64,000 bases of DNA. It comes from a virus (Duplodnaviria; Caudoviricetes). Positions within the stretch are counted from its first letter, which is position 1; every line of letters starts with the position of its first letter. Shown here piece by piece: positions 4,854-40,527 of the stretch. The DNA lies in the IMG/VR virus record IMGVR_UViG_3300009506_000084, positions 195-64,194 of that record; one strand, 5' to 3'. A program made the position numbers and the translations under genes. The notes beneath the pieces were generated by a model. The model searched no databases. It had not been told where the DNA came from and saw only the letters and a program-made list of their open reading frames with translations.

Positions 4854-4854
4854 T

Positions 4855-6673: not shown

Positions 6674-6674
6674 G

Positions 6675-7343: not shown

Positions 7344-7346
7344 AAA

Positions 7347-19782: not shown

Positions 19783-20480
19783 GCGATTGGGAATGGCGGC
19801 TTGAGCGCAAGTACAGCCCCGACCAGCCGCGCGTGCCCGCGGGGTCGCCGGAGGGAGGGCGGTGGACGAGTGGGGGCGGCGGCATCGCCAAGGTGGAACG
19901 ACAAGGTCCGAAAGCGGTGGCTCGTTACCTCCGTTCCAAGCCTAAGTATACGGATTTCAAGGTTCTTCCCAAGGAGGAGTTCGACGAGCGGTTTGGGAAC
20001 GAGTACGGCGGCCTTACGGGCGATACTGCGGCCACCGCCCTGCGCACGGGCGAAATCTACATCAGGGAAGGAAACGAGGACTTCGCCCTTCATGAGCTAG
20101 TCCACGCCGCCGGGTTCATGCCTGACGGTGCGGGTCGCTTTCTTAACGAGGGCATGACCCAAGCCGCAGCAGAGGAAATAGGAAAGCTCGGCGGAATAAC
20201 AGTCTACCCGAGTTATGGAAAGGAACGCCGTTTCGTAGAAAAATACGTGATTCCCGCTACTGGGCTCTCAGCGCAAGAGGTGTTCCGGGGTTATGCTGGG
20301 GCGGCCCATAAGACGAGGTACCTTGTTGACTTGATTTGGAAGAAGCACGGTGACAAGTTCTCCAACGCCGAAGATTGGGGGCCTAACACGAGGAAAGGTT
20401 TTGAGCAGACGCTGGAGCAAACCATCGGTTCGAATATCTATCTCAGCTACCTGATAGACGAATTGGGAGTCGCAAAGTGA
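19779..20480 (+). CDS. Tagged zincin metallopeptidase
   Basis: Leader MSDWEWRLERKYSPDQPRVPAGSPEGGRWTSGGGG; HELVH plus downstream LNEGMT. Confidence 0.8.
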   Translation: MSDWEWRLERKYSPDQPRVPAGSPEGGRWTSGGGGIAKVERQGPKAVARYLRSKPKYTDFKVLPKEEFDERFGNEYGGLTGDTAATALRTGEIYIREGNEDFALHELVHAAGFMPDGAGRFLNEGMTQAAAEEIGKLGGITVYPSYGKERRFVEKYVIPATGLSAQEVFRGYAGAAHKTRYLVDLIWKKHGDKFSNAEDWGPNTRKGFEQTLEQTIGSNIYLSYLIDELGVAK

Positions 20481-21843: not shown

Positions 21844-22300
21844 ACTGTATTATCAGTTTCTGGCCCTGATGCCGCTGTGCTGTGTGGATGTGGCTATTGT
21901 CCAGGGCGGGGCGGTGTTACTGGTCAAGCGGGCGTGCGCCCCGGCCAAGGGGCAGTGGTGGCTGCCTGGTGGCCGCGTGCTGAAGGGCGAGACCTTGCGC
22001 CAGGCCGCGCACCGCAAGGCGGTGGGGGAAACTGGCCTGGATTGTCATGTCGGCCCGCTCATCCACAGCGCCGAGACCCTCTTTGACGACGGGCCGGGAG
22101 ATATCAGCGTTCATTCGGTCAATTCCTGTTTCCTGTTGTGGCCGAAAGAGGGAGGGCAAAAGGTCCAGCTTGACGGCCAGAGCATTGATTTCAATTGGGT
22201 CTGCGACCCCCAGGAATTCTACGAGTTAACGGAAGAAGGGGCGGAGAAGGTCAGATTGCACCCGTATGTGATGTCTTGTCTAGCAGGGGCCGGGCTATGA
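21830..22300 (+). CDS. gmm: GDP-mannose mannosyl hydrolase-like NUDIX protein
   Basis: MPLCCVDVAI..LLVKR..PAKGQWWLPGGRVLKGET; C-terminal LHPY. Confidence 0.75.
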   Translation: MVPDELYYQFLALMPLCCVDVAIVQGGAVLLVKRACAPAKGQWWLPGGRVLKGETLRQAAHRKAVGETGLDCHVGPLIHSAETLFDDGPGDISVHSVNSCFLLWPKEGGQKVQLDGQSIDFNWVCDPQEFYELTEEGAEKVRLHPYVMSCLAGAGL

Positions 22301-23100
22301 GCGACAACCTGAAATGGGTCTTGAAAGAGGAAAAAGGCGGGCGGGGGTCTGGTCACTGGGGGCATGCCGGGGACCCGCCACACCGTGGCGGCAGCGTGGC
22401 GGGCGGCGGTCACTGGACGCTGGTCAAGGTCAAATGCCCTATAAACAACCCGGTGGCCGTCGAAATCTGCCAGCGACTGACCGCGGCGGCGGAGAAACGT
22501 GGGGAATTTCCGACGACCGCAGAGGTCAAGAAGCACAACCGATACTTGAAATCTATGAGCCATGAAGAAAAAGTGGACTATATCATAGAGAAAAAGTTGA
22601 AAAGTGCCTCAAAAAAGCTCAACGCGGAAGCCGAACCTGTGTTGCGCAAGGTCTTGGAGGATTTGCCGGATGGGCATCTTGACCTAATCAGGGCAACACA
22701 GTTCAAGCTGGCCCGCAAGTGGCCGGAGGAATCTGACTACACCAGTGAAGACACAGCGGGCACCTTTTCCAGCATGAATAATGTCGTGACGGTACTCGAC
22801 AAGTACAATGACCCCGGTGTTTGGGCACACGAAATCGGCCATGCTGTCCACTACAAGACCGAGAGCCAGATTGGAGGGTATTATCAAAACACGGGCCTGT
22901 GGGGGGCAACCTGGTCGTCGCTTAAAAAGCACATGCCGACCAACTACGCCCGGACCGATGCGGCAGAAGGTTTTGCTGAGTGTTACGAGTACTATTGCAA
23001 AGGAGCCATTTTCAAGTACCAGATGAACCATGAATTGGTCCAAATTTTCGACAGGGTGTTTTCGGAACCACCCAAGAAATGGGGAGATTACATGCAATGA
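22297..23100 (+). CDS. Leader-bearing zincin metallopeptidase with an alternative Gly/His tag
   Basis: MSDNLKWVLKEEK then GGRGSGHWGHAGDPPHRGGS; HEIGH and TNYARTDAAEGFAE. Confidence 0.78.
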   Translation: MSDNLKWVLKEEKGGRGSGHWGHAGDPPHRGGSVAGGGHWTLVKVKCPINNPVAVEICQRLTAAAEKRGEFPTTAEVKKHNRYLKSMSHEEKVDYIIEKKLKSASKKLNAEAEPVLRKVLEDLPDGHLDLIRATQFKLARKWPEESDYTSEDTAGTFSSMNNVVTVLDKYNDPGVWAHEIGHAVHYKTESQIGGYYQNTGLWGATWSSLKKHMPTNYARTDAAEGFAECYEYYCKGAIFKYQMNHELVQIFDRVFSEPPKKWGDYMQ

Positions 23101-23360
23101 ATCTGAACATCATAATGGGCGACCAGGTAGTGGGCAAAATCAAGCCAGACGGGTTCTACTCCGACGATGAGCGATTGTCTCTGATGCTGGTCGACATGTT
23201 TGACGGGCGCGGGGCAGAAGTGTGGAAAAGCACAAAGACCGATGAGGGTATAGCCGATTCCATTGCCAGTTACGTCAAGCCAGGAGAAAAGGACTTTGAA
23301 AGCCTGATGATGACCCAATTGACCCGGCGCGGTTACGTGTTGGCGATGGTGGAGGACTAA
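23097..23360 (+). CDS. Small acidic protein, candidate partner/immunity of the upstream peptidase
   Basis: ATGA overlap with the peptidase stop; 87 aa. Confidence 0.5.
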   Translation: MNLNIIMGDQVVGKIKPDGFYSDDERLSLMLVDMFDGRGAEVWKSTKTDEGIADSIASYVKPGEKDFESLMMTQLTRRGYVLAMVED

Positions 23361-24103
23361 TGCCGGTTCTAAGCGGTTTCACATTCATTCACAACGGGAT
23401 TGAAGGAGGCTACCCGTTCATAGAGGCCATCTATTCTGTCTGGCCTTTTGTAGACGAAATTGTGGTCATCGACGCCGACAGTGACGACGGGACACTGGAC
23501 GTACTCTTGCAGATGGGCGACAAGGTCCGGGTCATCGATGCCAGGTGGGGCAACCGGGCCGGGGAAACGCTGGCCCGCCTGCACGCCATGAATGAGCTTT
23601 GCAGGGGCGATGTGATTGTCCATTTTGAGGCCGATGAGGTCTGGGACCCCAACCTACTCGGCGTCGTAACCTACCAGATACGCTACGGCCAAGGGCGCGA
23701 TTTTGTGGTCTACCGCATCCAGGTGGAGCAGAATTTCCAGCGGGTGCGATGGTACCCGTGGCCGGTCCACCGGGTCTTTCCCAGGGGCAGCGTCAAGAAA
23801 ATCGGGGAATCGACCAATCGGCACGGCCAGGCAATGGTTGTGTCTGCCGACCACGGCCTGCTGTGGGATTGCACCAACTGTTTCCGCGACGACTGGCTGG
23901 GCCGAATCAAGAACCAGAGCATCTTGCGCAACCAAGAGGCGTTGAACCTGCTTGCGGTCCCCAACCACGCCAACGGCCCCAACCGGGTGGACGACATCGA
24001 CCAATTTCTGGCACAACCACACTGGACCTACACGACCAGCCCCCTTGCCCTGCCGGACATCCTGAGGCCTCTGGTCGGGAGGACAAGCTATGCCCCTGTA
24101 TGA
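23360..24103 (+). CDS. GT2-like glycosyltransferase
   Basis: LSGFTFIHNG..YPFIEAI..VDEIVVIDADSDDGT, FEADEVW. Confidence 0.8.
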   Translation: MPVLSGFTFIHNGIEGGYPFIEAIYSVWPFVDEIVVIDADSDDGTLDVLLQMGDKVRVIDARWGNRAGETLARLHAMNELCRGDVIVHFEADEVWDPNLLGVVTYQIRYGQGRDFVVYRIQVEQNFQRVRWYPWPVHRVFPRGSVKKIGESTNRHGQAMVVSADHGLLWDCTNCFRDDWLGRIKNQSILRNQEALNLLAVPNHANGPNRVDDIDQFLAQPHWTYTTSPLALPDILRPLVGRTSYAPV

Positions 24104-24302
24104 ATACCGGTGCGTGGACCCGGAATGTCGTCAGGTCAGCGAGTATATGAGGCCGTCAGCCAAGCGCAACGAACCGGCGATTTGCAAGGTCTGTGGCAAA
24201 GCTGCCAGGCGCATCATCTCGACGCCGCAACCTTGGAAGGGGGTGTGGGCCGAGCCGGTACACCCGGAGAAGTTGAGGACCACGAAGGAGATATGGGAAT
24301 GA
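24090..24302 (+). CDS. FmdB-family zinc-ribbon protein
   Basis: MPLYEYRC..C...CKVCG..ARRIIS. Confidence 0.75.
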   Translation: MPLYEYRCVDPECRQVSEYMRPSAKRNEPAICKVCGKAARRIISTPQPWKGVWAEPVHPEKLRTTKEIWE

Positions 24303-24679
24303 CAGACCCATTCAACGACTTCTTTGAACCGTTTGAATGGACCCGAAAGATGCGATTCTTGTTCTGGCTGGGCAAGCACATCGGCAACATTCGCTATCGC
24401 CTGGGTCTGACCCATCAGTTTCATTGCCAGGAATGTGGGTGGCCGATGATGGAGCGATACGATGGTCATTACTGGCACTGGCTTTGCTCAAATTCCGATT
24501 GTGGCTTTGAGCGACCCTGCCGACACGCTCCACAGGTTTTGAAGCGACAACACCGCGTGGTGGCTCATTTGCGGGTCATTTGGAAAGAGTCTCAAGTTAG
24601 GCACCAACAGGCGAACGCGGAGTTTCAGGGCCTGCTTGCCAACAGGCTATATGAAGCCGGAAAAAGGAGACAACGGTGA
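24299..24679 (+). CDS. Zinc-finger hypothetical protein
   Basis: CQECG..CSNSDC; ATGA overlap. Confidence 0.45.
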   Translation: MTDPFNDFFEPFEWTRKMRFLFWLGKHIGNIRYRLGLTHQFHCQECGWPMMERYDGHYWHWLCSNSDCGFERPCRHAPQVLKRQHRVVAHLRVIWKESQVRHQQANAEFQGLLANRLYEAGKRRQR

Positions 24680-24891
24680 TGCTTTTTCTGCCGATGATTG
24701 AGGCCCGGCAGGAATACGCGAAAATCATGTGTGACCATGAGTGGCAGATGGCAGACCTGCAACGGGATTACAGCCGAAAGATGATGGACCTGGCGTCGGA
24801 TTTCTCGGACAACCGACAGGACTTGCAAGAAGTCCTGGCCTATCGTTTGCAGGCATCAGGATTTTGGGGAGGATGGTGGTTAAAGAAATGA
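24676..24891 (+). CDS. Hypothetical protein
   Basis: Overlapping start/stop packing. Confidence 0.4.
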   Translation: MMLFLPMIEARQEYAKIMCDHEWQMADLQRDYSRKMMDLASDFSDNRQDLQEVLAYRLQASGFWGGWWLKK

Positions 24892-25634
24892 GCGTTACCT
24901 TTGTCACCTTTTGCCACCCGCCGCGGTATGTCGAAAAGCTGCACCGACCTGGGGCCTTGCAGAACATGGTCGCCAGCCACGCGTGGCCCTTTGACAAGGT
25001 GATTGTGGTCCACCAGAAATGTAGGAGCCAAGACTACCCGCCATTTGACACAGCTTGTCAGCCGGTCGACTTGCCGCGGGAGAAGTTCGACCCATTACTG
25101 TTGCGGTTTGGGGTGGATCCGACCAACGCCAGGGCGGAAGAATTGACCCACGGGGAGGGGGCCGCGCACTGGTGGAAGGCGCACGTGGTTAACCACTTGT
25201 GCGGCTTGGAGCACACCACCGGGGAGTTCGTGGTCTTTGCCGACTGTGACACCTACATCAAGTCGCAACCGTCATCCTGGGTCGGTCTGGGTATCGCTAT
25301 TCTGCGGAACAAGCCAGAGGTCTTGATTGTTAGCCCCGGCGACGGGGCGCAGAACGGCGGGCCGGGGGAAGGCGGTCATTGGGAGGATGGAACCCGGCTG
25401 ACCCGTAACGTCAGCCAGCAGCTTTTCATCTGCCGGGGTCAAGAGTTCAGGCAAAAGGTCAATTTCGACGTGCCGTGGAACGGCAAATTTGACGCCCCCG
25501 GCGGTCCCTTGCAGGAGTGGTATTTTATGCTTGAGGGCCGGTTGGGGCGCTATATGGACCAGAGCGGCCAGTGGCGGGCCATCTTACCTGACGCATGGCG
25601 CTATTGGCACGATTCCTATTGGGGGGCCGAATGA
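24888..25634 (+). CDS. GT-A-like glycosyltransferase
   Basis: GEFVVFADCDTYI (DxD), terminal YWH. Confidence 0.6.
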   Translation: MSVTFVTFCHPPRYVEKLHRPGALQNMVASHAWPFDKVIVVHQKCRSQDYPPFDTACQPVDLPREKFDPLLLRFGVDPTNARAEELTHGEGAAHWWKAHVVNHLCGLEHTTGEFVVFADCDTYIKSQPSSWVGLGIAILRNKPEVLIVSPGDGAQNGGPGEGGHWEDGTRLTRNVSQQLFICRGQEFRQKVNFDVPWNGKFDAPGGPLQEWYFMLEGRLGRYMDQSGQWRAILPDAWRYWHDSYWGAE

Positions 25635-26119
25635 GCGAAGCCGAAAACCCGCCCTACACGGTCCAATACAGCCATAACCGGCGCAACTGGTTTGACCTGA
25701 GCGGGCCTGCACCTCAGTCTTTCGATATCTGGGATGAAGCCCTGGTCTGGTATGAAAGGTTACTCGGCTATCATGGTCTATTGCGCTATGTTCGGATGCT
25801 CGACGGCAGCGGGTTTGAGGTCCTAATCAGTGAGATTCAAAAAGGGAGGCAAAAAGAAATGGCACACACAGATTGTTGCAAGTCAGAGACACAGCCGGAA
25901 ATCCGGGCGGGGTGGTTGCAACGGCTGGACGCGATTCAGGACGTGCTCAAGGAATCACTGGCGATTGAGGCGGAAATTGTCGGCCCGGTAGTTCAGGAGG
26001 GCCGGGAAAGCAAAAGCCCCGGCCACCTGTCAGACGGGTTGGGGTACCGGCTCTGCGAAATAGAATCGTTGTCTCACGCGGTCCTGGAACAACTCAACCA
26101 GATTCGGGCGCAGTTCTGA
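25631..26119 (+). CDS. Hypothetical protein
   Basis: Operon packing. Confidence 0.45.
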   Translation: MSEAENPPYTVQYSHNRRNWFDLSGPAPQSFDIWDEALVWYERLLGYHGLLRYVRMLDGSGFEVLISEIQKGRQKEMAHTDCCKSETQPEIRAGWLQRLDAIQDVLKESLAIEAEIVGPVVQEGRESKSPGHLSDGLGYRLCEIESLSHAVLEQLNQIRAQF

Positions 26120-27015
26120 TGCGCGTCTTGGTCACTGGCGGGTCTGGCCTTTTGGGCCGGTACCTGCTGAACACCCAACCCCGCAACATAGAAGCGGCGT
26201 ACACCTGGTACACTCGCAGCCAGCCGTGGACGGACTACCAGTTGGACGTTTGTGACAAGAGCATGGTCAGCTACGTCGTGGGCCGGGTCCAACCCGACGC
26301 CATCATTCACATGGCGGCAGCAGGCAACGTGGATTGGTGTGAAAACAACTACCGGGAGGCGTGGCGCTGCAACGTGGAGGGGACCGAGAACGTCTTGGCG
26401 GCGGCGGCAGACTACGGGGCCAAGGTGTTGCTGACCAGCACCAACGCGGTGTTCGACGGGGAGAACCCACCGTACCAGCCCGACGCGGAGCGCAACCCGG
26501 TCAACAGCTACGGCCGGATGCGGCGTAAGGCGGAAGACCTGTTTGCCCGGTACAAGGGAGAGTGGCAAGTTGCCCGACTGTTCCTGCTGTACGGGTGGGA
26601 GCCGCCGGGGGCGCGGGGCAATTGGGGGTCTGACGCCGTCCGGCGCTTAAGGCGGGGCGTGCCCATGCGGGTGGTGGATGACATCACCTACCAGCCGACC
26701 TATGCCGGGGACGCAGCGCGGGCGCTGTGGTGGCTGGTGACGGATTATGGGCCGGGGTACTACCACCTTTCTGGCGGCGACACGCTCAACCTGCACGCCT
26801 TTGTGCTCAAGGTGGCCGAAACGTGGGGCTACGACAAAAGCCTTATATCGGCTATAAGCATGTCGCAACTGGCCCACCTGAAAATGGCCCCCAGGCCACG
26901 CGATAGCAGCTACGTGCGAACCAACGGTCTGGGCCTGGTCTGCCGTGGGGTTGATAGCGGGCTGGCATCCATGCACCTGGAATGGCTGCAAGGGGCCGGG
27001 GGAGGACTTGAATGA
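26119..27015 (+). CDS. rmlD: dTDP-4-dehydrorhamnose reductase-like extended SDR
   Basis: VTGGSGLLG, HMAAAGNVDWCE, STNAVFDG, PVNSYG, PTYAGD, APRPRDS; the YxxxK lysine appears replaced (YGRMR). Confidence 0.75.
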   Translation: MRVLVTGGSGLLGRYLLNTQPRNIEAAYTWYTRSQPWTDYQLDVCDKSMVSYVVGRVQPDAIIHMAAAGNVDWCENNYREAWRCNVEGTENVLAAAADYGAKVLLTSTNAVFDGENPPYQPDAERNPVNSYGRMRRKAEDLFARYKGEWQVARLFLLYGWEPPGARGNWGSDAVRRLRRGVPMRVVDDITYQPTYAGDAARALWWLVTDYGPGYYHLSGGDTLNLHAFVLKVAETWGYDKSLISAISMSQLAHLKMAPRPRDSSYVRTNGLGLVCRGVDSGLASMHLEWLQGAGGGLE

Positions 27016-27497
27016 TGCGATGCGATTTGGACATCAACGAAATGGCGGGAAACATTAGGATTGAAATCGTCGTGAGCGGGATGCCCAAGTTCCGATTGAA
27101 GCTGTGGTTGTTTGGCCTGTTTGTCTGGCTGGCCCGCCTGTTCTCCCCATTCGATTTGCAGGTGGTAGAGGAAGAAGGGGAACCGGCGCTGCTGTTCTGC
27201 CCTTACTGCGGAAGGGAGAACGTGGAGCGGGTCATGCCGGGTCCTGACTATTTTCAGTGCCATCATTGCAGGTGCCAATACATGGTGCTGGACGGGAAGG
27301 TACAGGCAAGCCCGCGGCCCTGCGACTATGGCTGCGGCTTTGAGGAACCGTTCGGCTATGTGCCGGAGGCCGGTTGCCCCGTTCACGATTACCGTGAATG
27401 GGTTGAGAGCGATGAGGGACATGCCTGCCCTGACTGTTTGAACATTCAAGACCTTTTTGACGGCGGTGAGGACGATGAGCGACCCGACGGCGCATGA
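27012..27497 (+). CDS. Cys-rich hypothetical protein
   Basis: Several CxxC pairs. Confidence 0.45.
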   Translation: MMRCDLDINEMAGNIRIEIVVSGMPKFRLKLWLFGLFVWLARLFSPFDLQVVEEEGEPALLFCPYCGRENVERVMPGPDYFQCHHCRCQYMVLDGKVQASPRPCDYGCGFEEPFGYVPEAGCPVHDYREWVESDEGHACPDCLNIQDLFDGGEDDERPDGA

Positions 27498-27711
27498 AAA
27501 CCTGATAGGGATAAGGGCCGACGAACTGCTGCGCCAGCCGGAACGGGCGATGCCGTTCATCATCGCCCCGGCGCAATGGCTGGAACCGGGCCAAAGTTGC
27601 GTGTGGCACTACCACGACGTGTCCATCGTGCTGAAACACGACGGCCAGTTGTTCCGGGTGGCAGACGTGGTGGAGGACATAGGACAATGGGCGAATACCG
27701 CTGGAAGCTAG
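27475..27711 (+). CDS. Hypothetical protein
   Basis: GAGG RBS, operon packing. Confidence 0.4.
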   Translation: MSDPTAHENLIGIRADELLRQPERAMPFIIAPAQWLEPGQSCVWHYHDVSIVLKHDGQLFRVADVVEDIGQWANTAGS

Positions 27712-28478
27712 AGAAAAAGAAGTACGACCCTAATCAACCAAGAATCCCGGCGGGCCAATCCGGCGGGGGCCGGTGGACCAGCGGGGGAGGTGGCGGGGAA
27801 TCCTTTGCCAACATGGCCGTGGCGGGCAACGTGCAGAAAGACAAGGGACTTGGCGGCGGTGTCACTGAATCGCGCCTGTTGAGCTTTGGGGGAGGACAAG
27901 ACGGGGTCTGGAAGAAAGACGAGCCGGTTAACCGGGCTGACGCAGAAGTTGCCGTGGACCGATTGGACAATTTGTTGGGCATGGAAGTTGTTCCAGAAAC
28001 AGTGTTTTTGGAACGCGAAGGCAAGATGGGTTCCTGCCAACGGTTCGTGGGGGATGCCACGACCGCAGCGTGGATACTCGATAATGACGGAGAGGCCCGA
28101 TACAATGAGTTGTTACAGTCTAACCGGGAACGGGTAGAGGCCATGATTTTCCTTGATTGGATGAGCGGAAACAGGGATCGGCATTTTGGAAACGTGATTT
28201 TCGACAAAGAAGGAAAATTGTGGGCCATTGACAACGGGCAAGCTCAAGATTGGGATGCCCGTCGTGGCGCGGGCAAGGCATGGGCGGGCGACCTTGACCC
28301 CTCCGTCAGGCAAACGGGCCGATACGCCCTCACGTCGCCCAGGTTGAAGGAGTCCATAGGCAATATAGATTCCTTTGGGTTGTTGAAGGTTGTGAAGGGA
28401 ACCAGATACGAAAGGCAGTTTGAAGCGGCGCTTAGAAAATTGCGCCATGTTCAGAACACGGGGGAATTGATATGGTAG
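27687..28478 (+). CDS. Tagged PI3/PI4-kinase/HipA-like kinase
   Basis: Leader MGEYRWKLEKKKYDPNQPRIPAGQSGGGRWTSGGGGG; GLGGGVT, VWKK, AEVAV..LLG..VPET, DWMSGNRDRHFGN, WAIDNG. Confidence 0.82.
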   Translation: MGEYRWKLEKKKYDPNQPRIPAGQSGGGRWTSGGGGGESFANMAVAGNVQKDKGLGGGVTESRLLSFGGGQDGVWKKDEPVNRADAEVAVDRLDNLLGMEVVPETVFLEREGKMGSCQRFVGDATTAAWILDNDGEARYNELLQSNRERVEAMIFLDWMSGNRDRHFGNVIFDKEGKLWAIDNGQAQDWDARRGAGKAWAGDLDPSVRQTGRYALTSPRLKESIGNIDSFGLLKVVKGTRYERQFEAALRKLRHVQNTGELIW

Positions 28479-28669
28479 TCATTTTCTATCAGACCACCAC
28501 GGGCGGTGGCGCAGAAGTTGCACGGGTCAACTTGGTGGACGGACGATTAGAAGGGCCGAAAACTTACGTGGACCTGTTGCTATCTGCGGGCCAGCAACCT
28601 GCAGAAGCCATGAAACAAGCTCCGTCTCGGTTCAACGGCTCTTATTTGCGGGCGAAGTTTCAAGCATGA
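28472..28669 (+). CDS. Small protein, candidate partner of the kinase
   Basis: Overlaps the kinase stop; 65 aa; PSRFNGSYLRA. Confidence 0.5.
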   Translation: MVVIFYQTTTGGGAEVARVNLVDGRLEGPKTYVDLLLSAGQQPAEAMKQAPSRFNGSYLRAKFQA

Positions 28670-29523
28670 CCCATCCCGTCAGCGGTTGCTGCTTCATCAA
28701 AAACACCTTTTTGGGGGCCTTCTGCCTGTTTGAAAGCATGGCAAGCCTGCTGCCCTTTGTGGACGACATGACCATCTTGGACCTGGGCAGCACCGACGGC
28801 ACCGAGCACTATTTGAAGGCCATTGCCAACAGCAACCCGCGGGTTAGGGTCTTGCACGGGGAATTTCCGGCGACCGATGCCGGGGTCTTTGCTACGCTGG
28901 CAAACACGCTCATTGCCGGGGTCAAACACGATGCGGTTCTGTACTGGCAGGCCGACGAAATCTGGCACGAAGACCTGCTGCTTCTCATGGAAGAACGGTT
29001 CAAGCGGGATGAGTTTGACCTGAGCTTTTGGCGCATCCAGTACCGGGACAACTTCCAGACGGTCAAGTGGTTCCCGCACGTCGTCCACCGGGTCGGCGTC
29101 AAGGGCCGGTTCAACTTCGTCGGGGACGGCATGAACACCGATAGGTTCATGGAACCGCCCATTTGCAGCGACTACGGCGGCGAGTACTTCATGCAGTGGG
29201 GGCAGATGGGCCAGGAGAAAATCAAGCCCTACGTGAACCAGATGATAACCGACGTTTCGATGGTCGGCGGGTTCCGCGACAACATCCCGTTCCGGCGCAT
29301 GGCCCACGCCCCGTTCTGGCACGAAGAACCGACCATCGAAGGCAAACCGGCCAGCCAGTGGCACGCCGATGCGCTGGCTGACCCCAAGTGGACCCGGCCC
29401 GCCAGCCCCTACAACTTGCCCAAGGCCCTGCGCTTTCATGTAGGACGGACCAGCTACGAATTTCGGAGTGACCTTTTTGACGCGCTGTGCCGGGACACAA
29501 CGCGGGAATGGTTGGGAATCTAA
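28666..29523 (+). CDS. GT2-like glycosyltransferase (paralog of 23360)
   Basis: VSGCCFIKN..LPFVDDMTILDLGSTDGT, WQADEIW, C-terminal VGRTSY shared with 23360. Confidence 0.8.
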   Translation: MTHPVSGCCFIKNTFLGAFCLFESMASLLPFVDDMTILDLGSTDGTEHYLKAIANSNPRVRVLHGEFPATDAGVFATLANTLIAGVKHDAVLYWQADEIWHEDLLLLMEERFKRDEFDLSFWRIQYRDNFQTVKWFPHVVHRVGVKGRFNFVGDGMNTDRFMEPPICSDYGGEYFMQWGQMGQEKIKPYVNQMITDVSMVGGFRDNIPFRRMAHAPFWHEEPTIEGKPASQWHADALADPKWTRPASPYNLPKALRFHVGRTSYEFRSDLFDALCRDTTREWLGI

Positions 29524-29542
29524 CAAAAGGAGGAAAGGACAA

Positions 29543-29728
29543 ATGAACGTGTACATGGTCTATGGGGTAGACAAGACTCAGAACAAGACGGTAGAGGCCG
29601 ATTTCTTCCACGTGGACGAACACGGCATCACCTTCTACCGGGCGGCAGGGGAGGACGAAGAACACGATGAATCCATTGCCTTTTTCCCCGCCTACCACAC
29701 GACCGGGGTTGTCAAGGAGCCAGAATGA
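29543..29728 (+). CDS. Hypothetical protein
   Basis: Strong RBS AGGAGGAAAGGA. Confidence 0.55.
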   Translation: MNVYMVYGVDKTQNKTVEADFFHVDEHGITFYRAAGEDEEHDESIAFFPAYHTTGVVKEPE

Positions 29729-29925
29729 TGTGCTGTGGCGGGAAAAACCGCCCCAATCCGTCGCAAGGGACGACGGTTGACTGTAACGGGCAAGAGGTCC
29801 GTTTCGAACCCAGAGCCTACGTGATAGCGGTCAAAAACAGCATGGACCTGTGTTCGTTCACCGGGACCGGGGCCGATGGCCTGGTCACTTACCTGGATGT
29901 TGAACGGGCGCTCGGAAGGAGATGA
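29725..29925 (+). CDS. Small protein with N-terminal CCGG
   Basis: AAGGAG RBS; MMCCGGK. Confidence 0.4.
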   Translation: MMCCGGKNRPNPSQGTTVDCNGQEVRFEPRAYVIAVKNSMDLCSFTGTGADGLVTYLDVERALGRR

Positions 29926-29928
29926 ATT

Positions 29929-30534
29929 GTGCCATTCGCAATCTATGACAATGAAGGCAATCCGCGTGACATGGACTGGCTCGTTGCCAACTACGGCCCG
30001 GTCGTCGGTCACGCGCCGATGGACGACGAGACGTGGGCGTGGCGGGTCGTTGAGGTCCGGGAGAACAAGCAGGGCAAGAACTTTGTCCTGGTCACCGTGC
30101 TTGATGCAGAGGGCAACCCGGTTGCGGGCAAGAAGGTATCCTGGTACTATTCAAGCGCCCACCACTGGGACGACAATCCCTGCGGCCCCATTGACGGCCT
30201 GCCCCCCGGCATGGTACCCGACGTGTTCGCAGGACCAGGGACCACGAATCCCGCAGGCCTGATTGGCCTGGGAATGAGCTTCGACGGCCAGTACGAACCG
30301 CCAGACATTGGCCCTTACGGCTTTTGGATATGCACCGAAGACGAACCCACGATGGTGGTTTACGGCCTGGGCTGGCTGCGGGCGACTAGTTATCATCACC
30401 TGGACGTGACCGTGCAATGGTCACAGGGAGATGCGTCGAACGGAGAACTGCTAGAAGAACTAGAGGCGGCGCAGACCAGCAACGCGGAAACGGCGCAGCA
30501 CATCGCCAACGCGATTGCGCTTGCCGGGGGCTAA
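29929..30534 (+). CDS. Ig-like/prealbumin-fold hypothetical protein
   Basis: VLVTVLDAEGNPVAG..VSW, GPYGFW, GLGW..HHLDV; C-terminal helix shared with the next gene. Confidence 0.5.
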   Translation: MPFAIYDNEGNPRDMDWLVANYGPVVGHAPMDDETWAWRVVEVRENKQGKNFVLVTVLDAEGNPVAGKKVSWYYSSAHHWDDNPCGPIDGLPPGMVPDVFAGPGTTNPAGLIGLGMSFDGQYEPPDIGPYGFWICTEDEPTMVVYGLGWLRATSYHHLDVTVQWSQGDASNGELLEELEAAQTSNAETAQHIANAIALAGG

Positions 30535-30535
30535 C

Positions 30536-31849
30536 ATGCAAATACCTGAATGTGTGTCAGGTCGGCGGGTCACACCGCGGGGTGTGCACGGTGCCCCAAT
30601 TGGGTTCCAGCCGTGGATGGACCCAAGCTGGCCGTACAACGCTGAACACTGGCAACAATTGCTGACCAATATGGGCGTTTCCTGGATGGTACTGCTCAGT
30701 GAGGGAGACGCAGCCCTTTTGAGCGGCGCAGCAGAAGCCCTCTTGGAGGCCGGGGTCATCCCCATCGTGCGGTTCAATTACCAGTTTCCCCGCCATTGGA
30801 CCCACGGGGACGTGACCGGGCAATACGTCAGTTTGTACAGCCAATATGGAGCGCCGTTTATCGCGGCCATCGGCAACGAGCCGTTTGACCCGCGGGAATG
30901 GGTGGACGGGGACGTGCCGCCCAAAGAAGAAGCCTGGGCCATCATCGCTGACCGCTGGAATGAAGCGGCCTGCATCACCGCGGAACGGGGGGGCATCGCT
31001 GGCTTTCCAGATGGGCCAAGCTATAATCTGGACGATAACCCGTTCTATCGCATCGGGGACCCGGACCTGCACTGGCAGGAAGGGCGGGCCGTGTACCTGG
31101 GCCACCACTACGGCAAGGGCCGACCCTGGGACTACCCGCGGGACGACGTGAGCCGGTTCGGGGTGTCGTTGACCGAAGATGAGTACTGCCAACTGCTCGA
31201 TATCTTCTGCGGCGACCCAAGCTGGCAGGACCTTCCGCTTGACCTCATCAACGCCCAGCGGCTGGCGTGGGCCAACCCGGACCTGACCGCCGTTCAGGAT
31301 GACGTGTGCTGGCACGGCTGGAAACGGGTCCAGCACTTCTCCCAAGAGGCGTTCGGTTTCCAGGTCCAAATGGCGATGACCGAAGGGGGATGGGTGCCCA
31401 GGGACCGGGCCGGAAGCGGGGACAAGAACGAAGAAGAACTGAAACGGCTGATACACGATTACTGGACCAAAGGGTTCACCAGGGAGGCGGCTCACCGGGC
31501 CGCAATCCTCAGCATCGACATTCGCTGGCCGCTGACCACGCCGACCCAGGTTGCCGTCAAGAGCCTGCAAATGTACGGCGACGACCATCCGTTCTTTGCC
31601 GTCTGCCCCTGGCTGCTGGCCTGTTCTGACATGGGCGGCAGCGGATGGGAATATGATGCGTGGCACGGGTGGGCGTTTGAACCGGAGCACGGGCGACAGA
31701 AGCCGGTCATTCAGGCCCTCATCGACAACCCGCCCAACGGGAACGACCTGTTGGCAGAACTGTACGCGGCGATGGAGGCCTGTTTGGAGACAGATGCACG
31801 GCTGGCCGCAGCCATCGCCCTGGCACAAGGAGTACAGCGATGCCCATGA
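30536..31849 (+). CDS. Putative TIM-barrel glycoside hydrolase (clan GH-A-like), possible lysin
   Basis: IGNEP acid/base-like motif, MTEGGW nucleophile-like motif, AVCPWLL. Confidence 0.6.
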   Translation: MQIPECVSGRRVTPRGVHGAPIGFQPWMDPSWPYNAEHWQQLLTNMGVSWMVLLSEGDAALLSGAAEALLEAGVIPIVRFNYQFPRHWTHGDVTGQYVSLYSQYGAPFIAAIGNEPFDPREWVDGDVPPKEEAWAIIADRWNEAACITAERGGIAGFPDGPSYNLDDNPFYRIGDPDLHWQEGRAVYLGHHYGKGRPWDYPRDDVSRFGVSLTEDEYCQLLDIFCGDPSWQDLPLDLINAQRLAWANPDLTAVQDDVCWHGWKRVQHFSQEAFGFQVQMAMTEGGWVPRDRAGSGDKNEEELKRLIHDYWTKGFTREAAHRAAILSIDIRWPLTTPTQVAVKSLQMYGDDHPFFAVCPWLLACSDMGGSGWEYDAWHGWAFEPEHGRQKPVIQALIDNPPNGNDLLAELYAAMEACLETDARLAAAIALAQGVQRCP

Positions 31850-32379
31850 ACTCTTTGCGGCTCACCCGGCGGGAATTTCTGAAACTGATAGGGCTGACGA
31901 CCACCGGCGCGGCGACGGGCTGGAAGCCACGTGTGGAGATTCTTCCTTATGAGTCCCCGGTTCTGGTTGACCAGGCGGCCAGGCAGCGTACCTTGTTTGC
32001 AAGTGACCTGCAATTCGCCAACGTGGGCGATGGCCTGCTGTCTTACATGTTTATGGCCCCGCAGGACACCCAGGGAGAGGTGGACCTGACCCTGTTGTGG
32101 ACGGGAAAGAGCCGGGAATTCGGCTGGTGGGTGGACCGGCTGGACTGGCACCAACTGGGGGAAGACCTGGGGCGCTGTGACCCCTTTGCGGCATTGCCGA
32201 TGACCTTGAGAGAGCTTCAATCGGAAGGGCCGGACCTGGTCAACCGGGACCCGTTGGGCAGTTTCCCTGTCAAGCCGTCCGGCCTGTACTCCATCGGCCT
32301 GTACACCCCGCACCTGCCCTATCTTCTCAAAGAGGGGGCAATTAGGGTGTTGGGCCTGGATTTGTCATGGATGGCGTGA
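31840..32379 (+). CDS. Protein with twin-arginine (Tat)-like signal
   Basis: LTRREFLKLIGLTTTGAATG. Confidence 0.5.
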   Translation: MPMNSLRLTRREFLKLIGLTTTGAATGWKPRVEILPYESPVLVDQAARQRTLFASDLQFANVGDGLLSYMFMAPQDTQGEVDLTLLWTGKSREFGWWVDRLDWHQLGEDLGRCDPFAALPMTLRELQSEGPDLVNRDPLGSFPVKPSGLYSIGLYTPHLPYLLKEGAIRVLGLDLSWMA

Positions 32380-33002
32380 CCATGGATTTCACAGCGGTGC
32401 GCGACCTGGCTCTGTCCTTTGACGACGGGCCGACCGGCGACCCTTTTCTGGACGACCGCTACCAGTGGCAGATTGACACCTTCGGTCATCCCAAGCCCTA
32501 CTATCGCCTGTTCTACCGGCTGGCTGAACTGCTCAAGCCGCGCATGGTCGTGGAGCTTGGCGCGTGGCGGGCGACCGGGGCGGCGCACCTTGCCCCGCAC
32601 AGCGGGACGGTGGTCACCATAGACCATCACACCGACCCCGGCGATGAGGAAAACAAGCGGTGGTGCGTTGAAGCCGCACAGCATTACGACAACTTGCTGT
32701 ACTTCCAAGGGTGGACCTGGGACCTGGTAAGCGATGTCTGGTACATCGGCAAATACATCGACGTGTTGTTCATCGACTCCTGGCACCACTACGATTATGC
32801 CATGAAAGACTGGAAATCCTACGTTGACATGCTGCGCCCGGAGGGAGCCTTGGTCATCGTGGATGACCTGGAAGACGTGGAGCCGACCTTGCACGACATG
32901 GTCAAGTTCTGGAATGAAATCAGCGACGGGTTCGACCGCTTTGTGCTCAAGGACGTGTCTACTTATCCGATGGGGTTCTTTTTGTGGAAGGAAAACAGCT
33001 AA
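32367..33002 (+). CDS. Class I SAM methyltransferase (Methyltransf_24-like)
   Basis: VVELGAWRATG, VTID, IDVLFIDSWHHY, LVIVDD. Confidence 0.8.
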   Translation: MDGVTMDFTAVRDLALSFDDGPTGDPFLDDRYQWQIDTFGHPKPYYRLFYRLAELLKPRMVVELGAWRATGAAHLAPHSGTVVTIDHHTDPGDEENKRWCVEAAQHYDNLLYFQGWTWDLVSDVWYIGKYIDVLFIDSWHHYDYAMKDWKSYVDMLRPEGALVIVDDLEDVEPTLHDMVKFWNEISDGFDRFVLKDVSTYPMGFFLWKENS

Positions 33003-33553
33003 CAACCCATAGCCTGCCGTGGCTGTTGCCAGCGGCCATCGAGTTTCTTGAAGGCATCCTGACGCCGGAGGCCAGGGTGTTTGAGTGGGGCATGGGCGGC
33101 AGCACCCCGTGGCTGGCCGACCGCTGCGGGCTGCTTTGGTCGGTAGACCACAACCCGGCGTGGTTTGAGGCGTGCTGGCAGGAACTTTGCAGCCGCGGCC
33201 ATGTCAACCTGCTGCTCTACCCGCCGGAAGGCAGCGACCGCGGCGACGCATCCGACCCGGACGCCTTTCTGTCGTCCTGCAAGACCGGCAGCTTCGAACG
33301 GTACGTCAAGACCATCGGCCTGTGCAAGGACTACGACGTGGTCCTGGTCGATGGCAGGGCGCGGGCGTCCTGCATCAAGGCCGGGGCAGAGGCCCTCAAG
33401 CCGGGCGGCTGGCTGGTGGTGGACAACACAGAGCGGGACTGGTACCTGAGAAGGGCCGGAGAATACCTGAAAGGATGGCAATGCGTCGTGTTCAAGGAGT
33501 CGGGTTGGCAAACATCGTTCTGGCGGAAGCCAGGTGGGGAGTGTTGTGAATGA
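32984..33553 (+). CDS. Class I SAM methyltransferase-like protein
   Basis: PWL, VFEWGMGGST, SVDHN, VLVDGRAR, LKPGGWLVVDN. Confidence 0.8.
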   Translation: MEGKQLTTHSLPWLLPAAIEFLEGILTPEARVFEWGMGGSTPWLADRCGLLWSVDHNPAWFEACWQELCSRGHVNLLLYPPEGSDRGDASDPDAFLSSCKTGSFERYVKTIGLCKDYDVVLVDGRARASCIKAGAEALKPGGWLVVDNTERDWYLRRAGEYLKGWQCVVFKESGWQTSFWRKPGGECCE

Positions 33554-34095
33554 ACCTGACGAACCTTGCTTACCTGGTAGACAAAGCCGTGGAAACCGAC
33601 CCGCCAAAAGACCTGCTGGCCTATTGTGGCGACCAGTACCGGCCTTATTATCACTTGCTGTACCTTTTGGCATTACACACGCCACACGCCTGCGTGGAAT
33701 TGGGGGTCGAGAAGGGACGGGGCGCGTTCGCAATGGCGCTAGCAGGACGTGATGTGTGGGGGATGGACCACACGCGGCGGGACGAACTGGCCGTGGTCGA
33801 GCGCCGGTTCCCCAACTTCCATTACCTGGAGCAGAGCAGCCTTCCGGTGCCCAAGCGGGTCAAGGCGCCCGTCGGCCTGCTGCACGTGGACACCGAACAC
33901 AGCTACGCCCAGGCCAGGGAAGAATTTTGGGCGTACAAGGAGTATCTTCCCATCGGTGGGACGGTCTGTTTCGATGACACCCACGCCCAGGAATATCAGG
34001 TCGCCCATTTCGTGACCACCTTGCCGTGGCCGACTATCTTCGATGACCGTCTGCACGAATGCGGGTACGCGGTCGTGGTCTATACCGGGGGCTAA
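33550..34095 (+). CDS. Class I SAM methyltransferase (Methyltransf_24-like)
   Basis: CVELGVEKG, LLHVDTEHSY, VCFDD. Confidence 0.8.
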   Translation: MNLTNLAYLVDKAVETDPPKDLLAYCGDQYRPYYHLLYLLALHTPHACVELGVEKGRGAFAMALAGRDVWGMDHTRRDELAVVERRFPNFHYLEQSSLPVPKRVKAPVGLLHVDTEHSYAQAREEFWAYKEYLPIGGTVCFDDTHAQEYQVAHFVTTLPWPTIFDDRLHECGYAVVVYTGG

Positions 34096-34096
34096 G

Positions 34097-34960
34097 ATGA
34101 GTGATTTGGAATGGAAGCTGGAAAAATCAAACCCAAGCCAGCCCCGCATCCCGCCTGGTGTGCCGGAAGGCGGGCAATGGACCCAGGCGTCGGGGCTGGG
34201 TGGGGGAGGAAAGCCGATGGGTAACCTACGGGGTCGTTCTGGTCGTAGTGACCCCAAACTGCCAAGAGATAGGGCGGGTCAAGCTGTCCTGTCTGGTCTG
34301 GCAAAAGGAACCCCTGACGGCATGCGGAAATTAGGTTTACACGGGTGGTCAAATCCGACACTGGAAGATGCCAAGCTCGTAAAAGATGAGATTTGCACAG
34401 AGCTAACAGAAAAAACAGGCCTGCCCTATAATACAGTGAGAACATTGGTTAAAACCTGGGCGGAAAGCTCTGCCGACAATAACGTGCTGTCACTCCAATT
34501 GCAAAAGGCAGCAAGCGATGAATTTGGGTTGAAGCTGAGGCAATCTGTCAGAAGCCGTCTCAAGAAAAATATTGAACTAATGAGTGACCTTTCATCGCAC
34601 AAAAGCCTAGAAAACCTCAACCTTACCGAAAAAGATGCCCGTGGATTCTTGAGGGCTATGTACAACAATACGCAAAAGCGGCTTGCCGACAGCGGTATCA
34701 AAGAGTTAACCCTGTATCGTGGCAGTGAGAGCTTTGAAAAGTATGAAGGACAGGATATTCGGTTGTCTGGAAATCCCATGCAATCCTGGTCTGTCTCTAA
34801 TTATGAGGCGTCTCTTTTTGGAAGGGCTGCGGTAATGAGGGTTCCGGCGACATCTATCATCAGCAGCGCCAGGACAGGGTTCGGTTGTCTATCTGAGGGG
34901 GAATTCGTGATATTGGTTGGAAATGATTCTGACCACACGGCGACAGTCCTTGAGGCTTGA
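34097..34960 (+). CDS. Tagged ADP-ribosyltransferase (divergent R-S-E)
   Basis: Leader MSDLEWKLEKSNPSQPRIPPGVPEGGQWT; LTLYRG, MQSWS, SEGEFVIL. Confidence 0.72.
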   Translation: MSDLEWKLEKSNPSQPRIPPGVPEGGQWTQASGLGGGGKPMGNLRGRSGRSDPKLPRDRAGQAVLSGLAKGTPDGMRKLGLHGWSNPTLEDAKLVKDEICTELTEKTGLPYNTVRTLVKTWAESSADNNVLSLQLQKAASDEFGLKLRQSVRSRLKKNIELMSDLSSHKSLENLNLTEKDARGFLRAMYNNTQKRLADSGIKELTLYRGSESFEKYEGQDIRLSGNPMQSWSVSNYEASLFGRAAVMRVPATSIISSARTGFGCLSEGEFVILVGNDSDHTATVLEA

Positions 34961-34978
34961 AGTAAAAGGGTATAAAAC

Positions 34979-35152
34979 ATGACCAAAAAAGAAGAATTGC
35001 CACTGGTTGACCCAGACGACCCGGAAGAAAACGAAGATTGGATACTGACGCCAGAGAAGCGCAAGCGGGAGGTGGCGCTGTTTGACGGGTTGCCTGAGAA
35101 AAAGACGTACAAAATAACCTGGCAAGAAGAAAAACAGCCCAAAGAAGAATAA
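34979..35152 (+). CDS. 57-aa charged protein, candidate partner of the upstream ART (not in ORF track)
   Basis: MTKKEELPLVDPDDPEENEDWILTPEKRKREVALFDGLPEKKTYKITWQEEKQPKEE; fills the gap between the two ARTs. Confidence 0.6.
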   Translation: MTKKEELPLVDPDDPEENEDWILTPEKRKREVALFDGLPEKKTYKITWQEEKQPKEE

Positions 35153-35154
35153 AG

Positions 35155-35832
35155 ATGGACAAGTATCACTGGAAGCTGGAAGTACAAAAGGGGTTTGACC
35201 CCAATCAACCCCGATGGCCTGCCGGGATGCCGTGGGGCGGTCAATGGCGGTCGCTTGGCGGGCAAGGCAGCGAAGTGTTGGATTTCGGGACCAATTGGGG
35301 AAAAGCCAGCGATTGGGGCCGGGAAAGCTCTCGACGGTGGACCAAGACTGTCACCAAAGAAGAAAAAGATGCCATCTTCCGCTACACGGCAAGTGGTTGG
35401 TATTCAATAAATAGAATACTCAGGGGAAAGAACCGGGAGGATGATTTCAACCTAGATTTTCGGGGAGACAAGCAAAAGCTGGACTCGGCTCTTTCCCGTT
35501 CCACAATCCCTTCCAATGTCAAGGCATATCGGGGCATGTGCAAAGGAGACAAATGTGCTGAAAGAATTAGCCAGCTTCAACCAGGAGACACATTCACTGA
35601 CAAAGGATACACTTCTACTTCCCTGGTTGCCAACATCGCATTCAGAAAACGGGTGATGGTCAACATCACAGTGCCCAAGGGGACCAAGGCGGCTTATATT
35701 GACCACCTATCCGAGAACAAGGGCGAATATGAACTGCTTATTGCAAGAAACTCAACCTTTCGCGTGGATGCTGTAAGGCGAGAAGGGGAATTGATAGACC
35801 TAGACGTAACCCTCATCGGACAGGGAGAATAA
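35155..35832 (+). CDS. Tagged ADP-ribosyltransferase (VIP2/C3-like)
   Basis: Leader MDKYHWKLEVQKGFDPNQPRWPAGMPWGGQW; YTASGWYSINRILR, KAYRG, DKGYTSTS, EYELLIAR. Confidence 0.88.
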   Translation: MDKYHWKLEVQKGFDPNQPRWPAGMPWGGQWRSLGGQGSEVLDFGTNWGKASDWGRESSRRWTKTVTKEEKDAIFRYTASGWYSINRILRGKNREDDFNLDFRGDKQKLDSALSRSTIPSNVKAYRGMCKGDKCAERISQLQPGDTFTDKGYTSTSLVANIAFRKRVMVNITVPKGTKAAYIDHLSENKGEYELLIARNSTFRVDAVRREGELIDLDVTLIGQGE

Positions 35833-35833
35833 C

Positions 35834-35932
35834 ATGAAAAAAGAAGACAAGTTCATCTGGGAAGATGACGACATTATCATTGTGAAAAAAGACAAAAAGC
35901 CGGAAAAGAAAAAGGAACCCAAAAGGAAATGA
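35834..35932 (+). CDS. 32-aa peptide, candidate partner of the upstream ART (not in ORF track)
   Basis: GGGAG RBS; MKKEDKFIWEDDDIIIVKKDKKPEKKKEPKRK; ATGA overlap with the next gene. Confidence 0.55.
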   Translation: MKKEDKFIWEDDDIIIVKKDKKPEKKKEPKRK

Positions 35933-40285: not shown

Positions 40286-40527
40286 CCTTGTGTCGACAAC
40301 GCAACGCCGGGTCCAAATTGCACCAGGTCTATTGCGACCTTTGCGCCGAGATGTTTGAATGGCCCAAAGGGGAAAAGGTGTTTGGGTTCTGTGATACCTG
40401 CGGGCGTGCAACCTGGTGTACCGACGTGGTCCTTTCTGGATTGCCCTACGCAATCACGAAACCTTACGGGAGAACATTTGGTGATGAGCGGGAAAGACAA
40501 GCAGCAATGGCGGCTTACCAAATATAG
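40276..40527 (+). CDS. Small Cys-rich hypothetical protein
   Basis: CDLC..CDTC; operon packing. Confidence 0.4.
   Translation: MAMTLCRQRNAGSKLHQVYCDLCAEMFEWPKGEKVFGFCDTCGRATWCTDVVLSGLPYAITKPYGRTFGDERERQAAMAAYQI

Follow-up and report, generated by a model that had tools for sequence, protein, structure and literature searches.

Bacteriophage T4 carries its ADP-ribosyltransferase (ART) Alt and its internal proteins in the head, to which a short N-terminal capsid-targeting signal directs them, and injects them into the host; we know of no partner inhibitors of these proteins. To our knowledge, how a phage spares its own production cell and how cargo gets picked for packaging are both poorly understood. 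Described here are four small open reading frames (ORFs), termed s1 to s4, each lying directly behind the gene of an enzyme with a short N-terminal tag in a stretch of viral DNA of 64,000 nt (the window), which makes up nearly all of the 64,194-base virus record IMGVR_UViG_3300009506_000084 (estimated to be 69% complete). The four ORFs are proposed to be real genes, each encoding a partner specific to the enzyme upstream, most likely an inhibitor; this reading is well supported for s2, which follows a kinase gene, and is put forward tentatively for s1, s3, and s4.

Described systems that come close to this arrangement include the antitoxins of short HipA-related kinases and the toxins of phage heads. 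The structural report on 7AB3 describes HipS as the antitoxin of the HipT kinase; the protein opens with a sheet, continues with a subdomain of three helices turned towards HipT, and closes with a strand, and it neutralises the kinase by means of Trp65 (in chain B of 7AB3) inserted at the active site (PMC10627512). In hipJS and hipIN, a HipS-like antitoxin is encoded downstream of the kinase, with HipN joining a HipS-like domain to a second domain (PMC8262856). For the MuF toxins of temperate phages, Jamet et al. (2017, PMC5576092) report a small putative immunity ORF after 89.4% of 191 toxin genes as against 25.5% of 952 short MuF genes. The polyvalent proteins of phages and conjugative elements, as portrayed by Iyer et al. 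(2017, PMC5512222), comprise peptidases, ARTs, kinases, and GNATs that are proposed to be delivered together with DNA.

The window shares features with each of these. As with HipT and HipS, the neighbour of a short atypical kinase gene encodes a small protein, modelled as β-strands followed by a helical subdomain and one more strand, and s2 is predicted to sit at the kinase active site, as Trp65 of HipS does; as in hipJS and hipIN, s2 lies downstream of the kinase, and a two-domain form found in the related loci L064–L066 resembles HipN. Unlike HipS (about 100 aa), s2 has only 65 aa and no detectable sequence similarity to HipS or to Couple_hipA, its kinase scores best against PI4K type II and FAM20 and not HipA, and the setting is that of phage structural and effector genes, with the kinase tagged or fused to portal or MuF proteins. 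No helix-turn-helix family was found in the neighbouring genes 27012–27497 and 28666–29523, hence there is no adjacent HipB-like gene in the window, in contrast to HipBST.

The likeness to MuF toxins lies in variable enzymatic domains tied to the head-morphogenesis region with a small ORF after each, which in the window holds for four of the eight tagged enzymes, and in the fact that homologues of three window enzymes are MuF fusions. In the tag-bearing loci L022 (4579–5031) and L047 (1192–1656, reverse-complement coordinates), moreover, an ORF of 150–154 aa that looks barstar-like by eye follows a tagged toxin-like gene, and in L019 (2375–2659) that place is taken by a 94-aa ORF whose W-D-P-I-G motif looks immunity-like. 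Unlike the MuF toxins, the window has eight separate genes with an N-terminal tag of some 30 residues and no MuF domain, and the word “kinase” is absent from the main text of PMC5576092. The polyvalent proteins span the same four protein-modifying classes as the window, where the domains are separate tagged genes and not one giant polypeptide; cognate small partners do not form part of their description, “HipA” occurring zero times and “immunity” never in that sense in the accessible text (PMC5512222). With respect to T4 Alt and the internal proteins, the tag sequences are unrelated and packaging of the window enzymes is presumed. Traits of all these systems come together here, where separate tagged effectors, in place of MuF fusions or polyvalent chains, have their own small partner per effector type and one partner is HipS-like in its modelled fold without a sequence link to HipS; by analogy, we class it as one that would work like HipT/HipS and like toxin–immunity pairs.

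The tag takes the form W-x-L ... P-N-Q-P-R-x-P-A-G ... G-G-Q/R-W at or near the start of eight genes. All four small ORFs are on the plus strand, tightly coupled to the enzyme genes upstream just where the sequence-only reading had located them, and comparison of the sequences of s1–s4 reveals no kinship among them, in keeping with its description of the four as unrelated. The ATG of s1 (23097–23360, 87 aa) overlaps the stop codon (ATGA) of a zincin-like peptidase gene (22297–23100, plus strand; GSGHWGHAG-type N-terminal tag, HEIGH motif, and a weak ATLF match of 0.0015, below the cut-off), and its own stop overlaps the start of the next gene. The start of s2 (28472–28669, 65 aa) stands 7 nt ahead of the stop of the tagged kinase gene (27687–28478, plus strand), which encodes a protein of 263 aa resembling PI3/4-kinases (PI4K-II, FAM20, or HipA-like; PI3_PI4_kinase at 2e-5, just below the cut-off), and s2 has an ATGA overlap with the gene that follows. 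The acidic and highly charged s3 (34979–35152, 57 aa) begins 18 nt past ART1 (34097–34960, plus strand; R, S-x-S, and E-x-E motifs by eye, no Pfam match) and ends 2 nt ahead of ART2 (35155–35832, plus strand), a VIP2/C3-like ART (Pfam ADPrib_exo_Tox, PF03496, 3.9e-35) that passes the curated cut-off of that family at 121.4 bits against 23.4. The Lys/Glu/Asp-rich s4 (35834–35932, 32 aa) starts 1 nt past ART2 and likewise shares an ATGA overlap with the next gene. A purine-rich stretch, read by eye, lies 6–14 nt upstream of each small ORF, and exact copies of s1, s2, and s3 are already called proteins in a public collection, on 3, 2, and 7 contigs respectively. Contigs of four sequencing runs carry near-identical copies of the region, with one difference within the four small ORFs (23190 G>T in run X9, giving V32F, P0156).

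The kinase and s2 carry the argument. A word index returned only two relatives of the kinase besides itself, and the alignment of these three sequences, scanned over metagenome contigs, led to 61 loci; the kinase motifs GVWKK, DRHxGN, and IDNG are conserved. At the closest kinase loci the next gene is an ORF of 67–87 aa that is clearly alignable with s2. Hidden Markov models (HMMs) built from these ORFs detect the domain immediately behind the kinase in ten loci, seven of which are among the ten best-scoring of the 61 (L061, L063, L064, L065, L066, L067, L068, L076, L097, and L107, with L064–L066 being near-duplicates of one type). In L062 a domain fragment lies immediately upstream of the kinase, in L069 another tagged gene comes after it, and L070 and most of the weaker kinase matches lie in different, cellular-looking contexts. 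The mode of virion attachment varies among the loci, the kinase being fused to a portal protein in L063 (8393–10705; Pfam Phage_portal and PI3_PI4_kinase), fused to a MuF-like N-terminus in L061, or furnished with tags of the GPGRGWWGPPKGTH and GSGHWGHAG kinds; the small gene thus follows the kinase regardless of how the latter is attached.

Prediction of the complex between s2 and the full-length kinase, including its tag, gave an interaction prediction score from aligned errors (ipSAE) of 0.83, 0.84, and 0.83 in three runs, compared with 0.01 for the best of three controls, with a predicted local distance difference test (pLDDT) value of 91 for the partner and at least 91% of contacts agreeing between runs. 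Among 157 solved complexes 116 attain the ipSAE mark applied, as do 2 of 215 mismatched pairs, a calibration that is only roughly valid with our own alignments. The predicted contacts fall on kinase residues 74 and 76 (GVWKK), 166–171 (the DRHxGN loop), and 181–182 (the Asp of IDNG), and on s2 residues 54–62, its most conserved stretch, and both sides agree with invariant alignment columns. An interface predicted on catalytic residues, and not on the tag, would be expected of a protein that plugs the active site.

Among 1.84 billion representatives searched with the profile, 431 proteins belong to the s2 family at E ≤ 0.001, most of them of 65–95 aa, and none of 124 members convincingly matched any Pfam family. 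A conserved motif of s2 reads G-[AS]-Y-L-R-A. The AlphaFold2 (AF2) model of s2 made with the family alignment (pLDDT 95.1) has a β-β-β-α-α-β topology, in agreement with the account of HipS in section 5 of PMC10627512. When the model was compared with 48,161 chains, ranks 1 and 2 were taken by 7ab3_B (Z 3.8, root-mean-square deviation 2.7, 54 residues aligned) and 7vkb_B (Z 3.8, root-mean-square deviation 3.1, 57 aligned), the chain B (HipS) of two HipBST complexes, and HipA N-terminal regions took the sixth (Z 3.2) and eighth (Z 2.8) places. Matches of this size are weak, as a Z below 8 may reflect a common arrangement, and a low Z means little alone, but the top-ranked family is the known partner of a related kinase class. 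Judged from the model, s2 would have a HipS-like fold without a sequence link to HipS; as its sequence did not match, we do not count it among the HipS proteins. An Atlas search with s2 returned Ig-like rows only, from a poor model, and a scan of genome contigs with an s2 motif gave 12 matches, none of which was a true family member by HMM.

We therefore weigh the following scheme, in which the small ORFs would be enzyme-specific partners, most likely inhibitors, and which, with the arming of packaged enzymes included, we consider about as probable as its negation. Since other phages have these enzyme domains joined to MuF or portal proteins, the tagged enzymes would most likely be loaded into the capsid and injected along with the DNA. 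In the phage-producing cell, s2 is predicted to bind the kinase over the ATP-binding Lys, the catalytic loop, and the metal-binding Asp, and would hold it inactive there. The partners carry no tag and so would stay behind at packaging, such that only free enzyme would reach the next host. By their position and by parallels in other phages, s1, s3, and s4 may do likewise for the peptidase and the two ARTs.

The small proteins could also bind the enzymes as chaperones, loading adaptors, or pro-domains, the s2-like domain being a generic N-terminal escort to the procapsid that is maybe removed at the tag. Such a role would suit the longer members of the s2 family: 27 of its top 150 representatives exceed 100 aa, and in those read the s2-like domain is N-terminal, then comes a Gly-rich tag of the kinds seen in the window, and then an enzyme, namely an ART in P0024 (2e-20) and P0077 (weak), a kinase in P0063, an HExxH peptidase in P0079 and P0146, and, by eye, a GNAT-like domain in P0005. 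The tag and peptidase of P0146 are homologous to the window peptidase (24% over 237 aa, 7e-6). The s2-like domain there occupies the position taken by MuF or portal domains in other fusions. Furthermore, the only loci reached by starting from s2 itself, L122 and L123 (one phage type), have the s2-like gene after a 386-aa HExxH zincin-like ORF, and no kinase was detected in the 40.5-kb record of L122 (56% complete). The predicted interface, with the tag on offer, nevertheless lies on catalytic residues; the window enzymes have different, unrelated partners, which fits a generic adaptor poorly; and an s2-like gene is missing from 29 further viral records that bear tags. The fused forms point either to a wider pro-domain or adaptor role or to an s2 gene that joined the next tagged gene in an effector array, and L064–L066, which have the kinase gene upstream and carry the two-domain form, look like the latter. 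Taken together, we regard a chaperone or adaptor function as unlikely.

For the three other pairs, ORFs behind enzyme homologues were picked by position and then ranked within a set of 9,907 small ORFs from 144 loci. In viral contigs ART1 has a single relative, which forms the C-terminal domain of a long MuF-like fusion in L122 (34% identity, 2e-32); a 51-aa acidic ORF overlaps the last 25 nt of this homologue, and its centre aligns with s3 (score 47, z 4.4), making it the top match to s3 in the set, the next, unrelated ORF scoring 38. The peptidase has two relatives in viral contigs, in L149 and L150, and both (2/2) are immediately followed by small ORFs (50 and 56 aa) that are homologous to each other (z 13.6); the one from L149 aligns with s1 residues 20–50 with a score of 45, ranking second of the 9,907, as against 48 for the best unrelated ORF. 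A distant tagged relative of ART2 occurs in L021 (27% identity, 4e-8), and its stop overlaps (ATGA) the start of an acidic ORF of 56 aa that has the N-terminal K-[FY]-x-W-[EG]-D-x-D-[IL]-[IV]-[IV] motif of s4 (BLASTP E 0.003; z 3.9) and again ranks second, scoring 37 as against 39 for the best unrelated ORF. As position, not similarity, governed the choice of these ORFs, chance is unlikely to have placed them first, second, and second; the parallels cover one or two lineages per pair (one for s3, two loci for s1, and one for s4).

A place for s1 in the s2 family was considered and rejected, as BLASTP found nothing, HMMs gave E > 20, and hhalign returned a probability of 0.4% against A2 and A4. 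The AF2 single-sequence model of s1 has a β3-helices-β topology, like that of s2, and an Atlas row for the HipA N-terminus (template modelling score 0.47, from a poor model) hints in the same direction; a fold comparison of the s1 model returned death-domain-like helices (Z 4.6) and no HipS. Kinship of s3 or s4 with the GNAT tails or with each other was likewise set aside, the comparisons being not significant, and s3 against the first half of the tags gave p 0.002 in two of eight comparisons, which is marginal after 16 tests. A scan of viral contigs with the s4 motif yielded eight stretches, mostly chance. In L142, an s4-like K-Y-T-W-E-D-G-D-I-I-I-V lies near residue 833 of a 1231-aa ORF, six residues ahead of an N-P-D-Q-P-R tag, so that s4 may begin with the very element that makes up the tag's first half (W-x-L...).

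These weaker pairs invite the view that s1, s3, and s4 are no more than ordinary phage ORFans or gap fillers placed by chance and that s4 may not be a gene at all. An ORF shorter than 100 aa follows 4 of the 8 tagged genes and 21 of 87 genes overall under a crude gene model (hypergeometric p = 0.09), so that the association is not significant in the window alone. Other small ORFs exist elsewhere, for instance at 29725–29925, and the absolute scores of the s1 and s4 similarities are within noise. No relative of s1 was detectable among 5.8 billion clusters, while s4, of 32 aa and 69% charged, is absent from the public protein collection. Set against this are the ranks just given, the pLDDT of 71.7 reached by the single-sequence model of s1, the tight coupling, and a composition common to each small ORF and its upstream enzyme: the enzyme and small-ORF pairs have a GC content of 0.34–0.56 and a third-codon-position GC content (GC3) of 0.52–0.69, as against 0.59–0.62 and 0.76–0.81 in the flanking transferase genes. 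No other 2 kb of the window is as poor in GC as the segment 34001–36000 (0.499 vs 0.56–0.63 elsewhere), which holds ART1, s3, ART2, and s4; this suggests a cassette gained as a unit. Placement by chance therefore strikes us as improbable. The ORF at 29725–29925, which is a called protein on five contigs, belongs with another at 29540–29728 as two more small coupled ORFs that are not behind a tagged enzyme.

The fold of s2 allows a further interpretation, namely that a HipA-like kinase has been split and s2 supplies the N-subdomain it lacks, as an activating subunit required for activity and not an antitoxin, with the other three ORFs unrelated in function. HipS corresponds to N-subdomain 1 of HipA, which is part of the active enzyme (PMC10627512), so that a HipS-like fold alone does not mean inhibition, and P0063 has an s2-like domain fused ahead of a kinase, as in HipA. 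The predicted contacts on the catalytic loop and the metal-binding Asp, on the other hand, suit occlusion better than scaffolding, and in the known split systems a separate HipS is reported to act as an antitoxin (PMC6581861, PMC9325769). An activating subunit thus appears quite improbable to us.

That the small ORFs serve the genes downstream is scarcely credible: all four are translationally coupled to the next gene as well, and the genes after s1 (23360–24103) and s2 (28666–29523) are paralogous GT2-like glycosyltransferases (29% identity, 3e-27), yet neither these nor the methyltransferase gene after s4 have a homologue in any related locus, where s2-like, s3-like, and peptidase-partner ORFs recur behind enzyme homologues, and the gene after s3 is itself a tagged ART. 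The order of tagged enzyme, small ORF, and GT2 occurs twice in the window.

Several further observations weigh against enzyme-specific inhibitors, in addition to the s2-like fusions, the kinase-free L122 record, the unrelated ORFs that outscore the parallels of s1 and s4, the weak Z of the HipS match, and the part played by the HipA N-subdomain. The predicted binding comes from one structure-prediction job, and likeness to a solved complex (HipBST) could inflate its score. By sequence, the kinase is nearest to PI4K type II (1.6e-11) and FAM20, and PI3_PI4_kinase is matched by 13 of 13 members of its family as against 2 of 13, weakly, for HipA_C. Couple_hipA is matched by none of the 124 s2-family members (E ≤ 5), a search of PDB sequences with the s2 profile gave nothing, including no HipS or HipA, and Foldseek found nothing in the PDB at E ≤ 0.001 for the s2 model. 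Half of the tagged enzymes (4 of 8) have no small partner, among them the ART at 5416, which is 34% identical to ART2, and no small ORF stands behind the ART2-like domain of Pseudomonas phage Orisa03. Charged residues make up 49% of s3 and 69% of s4, and both may be disordered. Finally, a lytic phage may need no self-protection late in infection.

The sequence-only reading had taken the small ORFs for candidate immunity or chaperone peptides that keep the enzymes inactive in the producing cell, and had named conserved gene pairing and structure prediction of complexes as checks. For the kinase and s2 both checks speak for it, the linkage being kept in ten loci out of 61 and in seven of the ten closest and the predicted complex having s2 on catalytic residues, and the modelled fold agrees; for the other pairs, what was found is positional conservation in one or two lineages with weak similarity. 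It had also assigned to both GNATs, in place of a small partner, a conserved acidic LEP(D/E)(D/E)GVF tail; the motif is indeed present in both, 64 and 35 residues ahead of the stops, and so does not form the very tail. The C-terminal regions of the two GNATs align with each other (z 7.3).

The eight tagged genes, all listed here by their start, comprise three ARTs (5416, 34097, and 35155), two HExxH proteins (19779 and 22297), the PI3/4-kinase-like protein (27687), a GNAT (40484), and one protein of unknown function (4855). A regular expression found the tag on seven of them, the peptidase having its GSGHWGHAG-type variant, and the corresponding DNA pattern gave six forward matches and none in the control. 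The four without a small partner, all on the plus strand, are the protein of unknown function (4855–5400), whose next gene is the tagged ART at 5416–6051, which in turn is followed by a MuF-like gene (6044–6673); a HELVH zincin-like protein (19779–20480); and the tagged GNAT (40484–41134), with the motif LEPEEGVF. The second GNAT-like domain (Acetyltransf_10, 2.6e-4, below the cut-off) is C-terminal in a 728-aa protein (2667–4853, plus strand) with the motif LEPDDGVF, which is taken for the portal protein from its position alone, as its gene comes after that of the large terminase (TerL). The gene at 6044–6673 is similar both to the region of the L061 kinase fusion that forms its MuF-like N-terminus (24.6% over 167 aa, 7e-10) and to an ORF in L049 (2e-21), and probably encodes the MuF-type minor head protein of the phage.

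The tag motif is widespread in viral contigs (54 loci), often between an N-terminal domain and a C-terminal enzyme. Relatives of ART2 are annotated as MuF-ART or capsid-protease-ART fusions in 31 phage records, and PHROG matches point likewise, whereas the window enzymes have the short tag (about 30 residues) at their start and no MuF domain was found in them. Direct fusion of an enzyme to a portal protein seems to recur, and the eight tagged enzymes look like a polyvalent protein dismantled into tagged single-domain genes. Other tag types, GPGRGWWGPPKGTH and GSGHWGHAGRPG, take the same place as the window tag (L061 4237–5022, 6878–7390, and 7394–8854; L064/L066; L067 3452–4240; L069 after 2125), and in fusions they separate the enzyme from a carrier domain (MuF, portal, or s2-like), as would befit a linker or a site of protease cleavage. 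A recurrent N-terminal motif in L068, K-Y-x-R-R-E-G-x-x-G-x-Y-x-Y-F-Y (4665–5261 and 5628–7637), precedes an ART-containing protein of 669 aa and may be a further tag class.

The window derives from part of the genome of an uncultured tailed phage. Its long ORFs are all on the plus strand and include, besides TerL, one of 1500 aa, which has tape-measure size, and an extended series of genes for sugar and methyl transferases. No close relatives were found by megablast in phages or by ART2 and portal scans of viral contigs, word-index searches with s1 and with ART2 returned only the queries themselves, and the kinase had no tblastn match in cultured phages. Contigs of runs X9 and X17 join position 26613 to 33853 through 17 other letters, omitting 7,239 bases that include the kinase and s2; as the shorter side of this junction comprises only 21 letters, it may be an artefact or a variant without the block.

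It is possible, though rather doubtful, that the locus amounts to a toxin–antitoxin system at the level of the particle, with one inhibitor per effector class, a tag that would sort the enzyme and not the inhibitor, and packaging as the step that would arm the enzyme; s2 would then be an unrecognised HipS-like branch devoted to virion-delivered PI4K/HipA-like kinases and reused as a removable N-terminal safety domain on ARTs and peptidases. The kinase and its 65-residue partner offer a testable pair with an interface predicted at the level of residues, the partner belongs to a family of 431 clusters currently without annotation, and three further candidate pairs of enzyme and partner are available for study. 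The arrangement also suggests a search rule, by which new inhibitors of ARTs, zincins, and atypical kinases would be sought right behind tagged or MuF-fused enzyme genes, and it would tie the HipS-type antitoxins of bacterial persistence modules to the biology of phage effectors.

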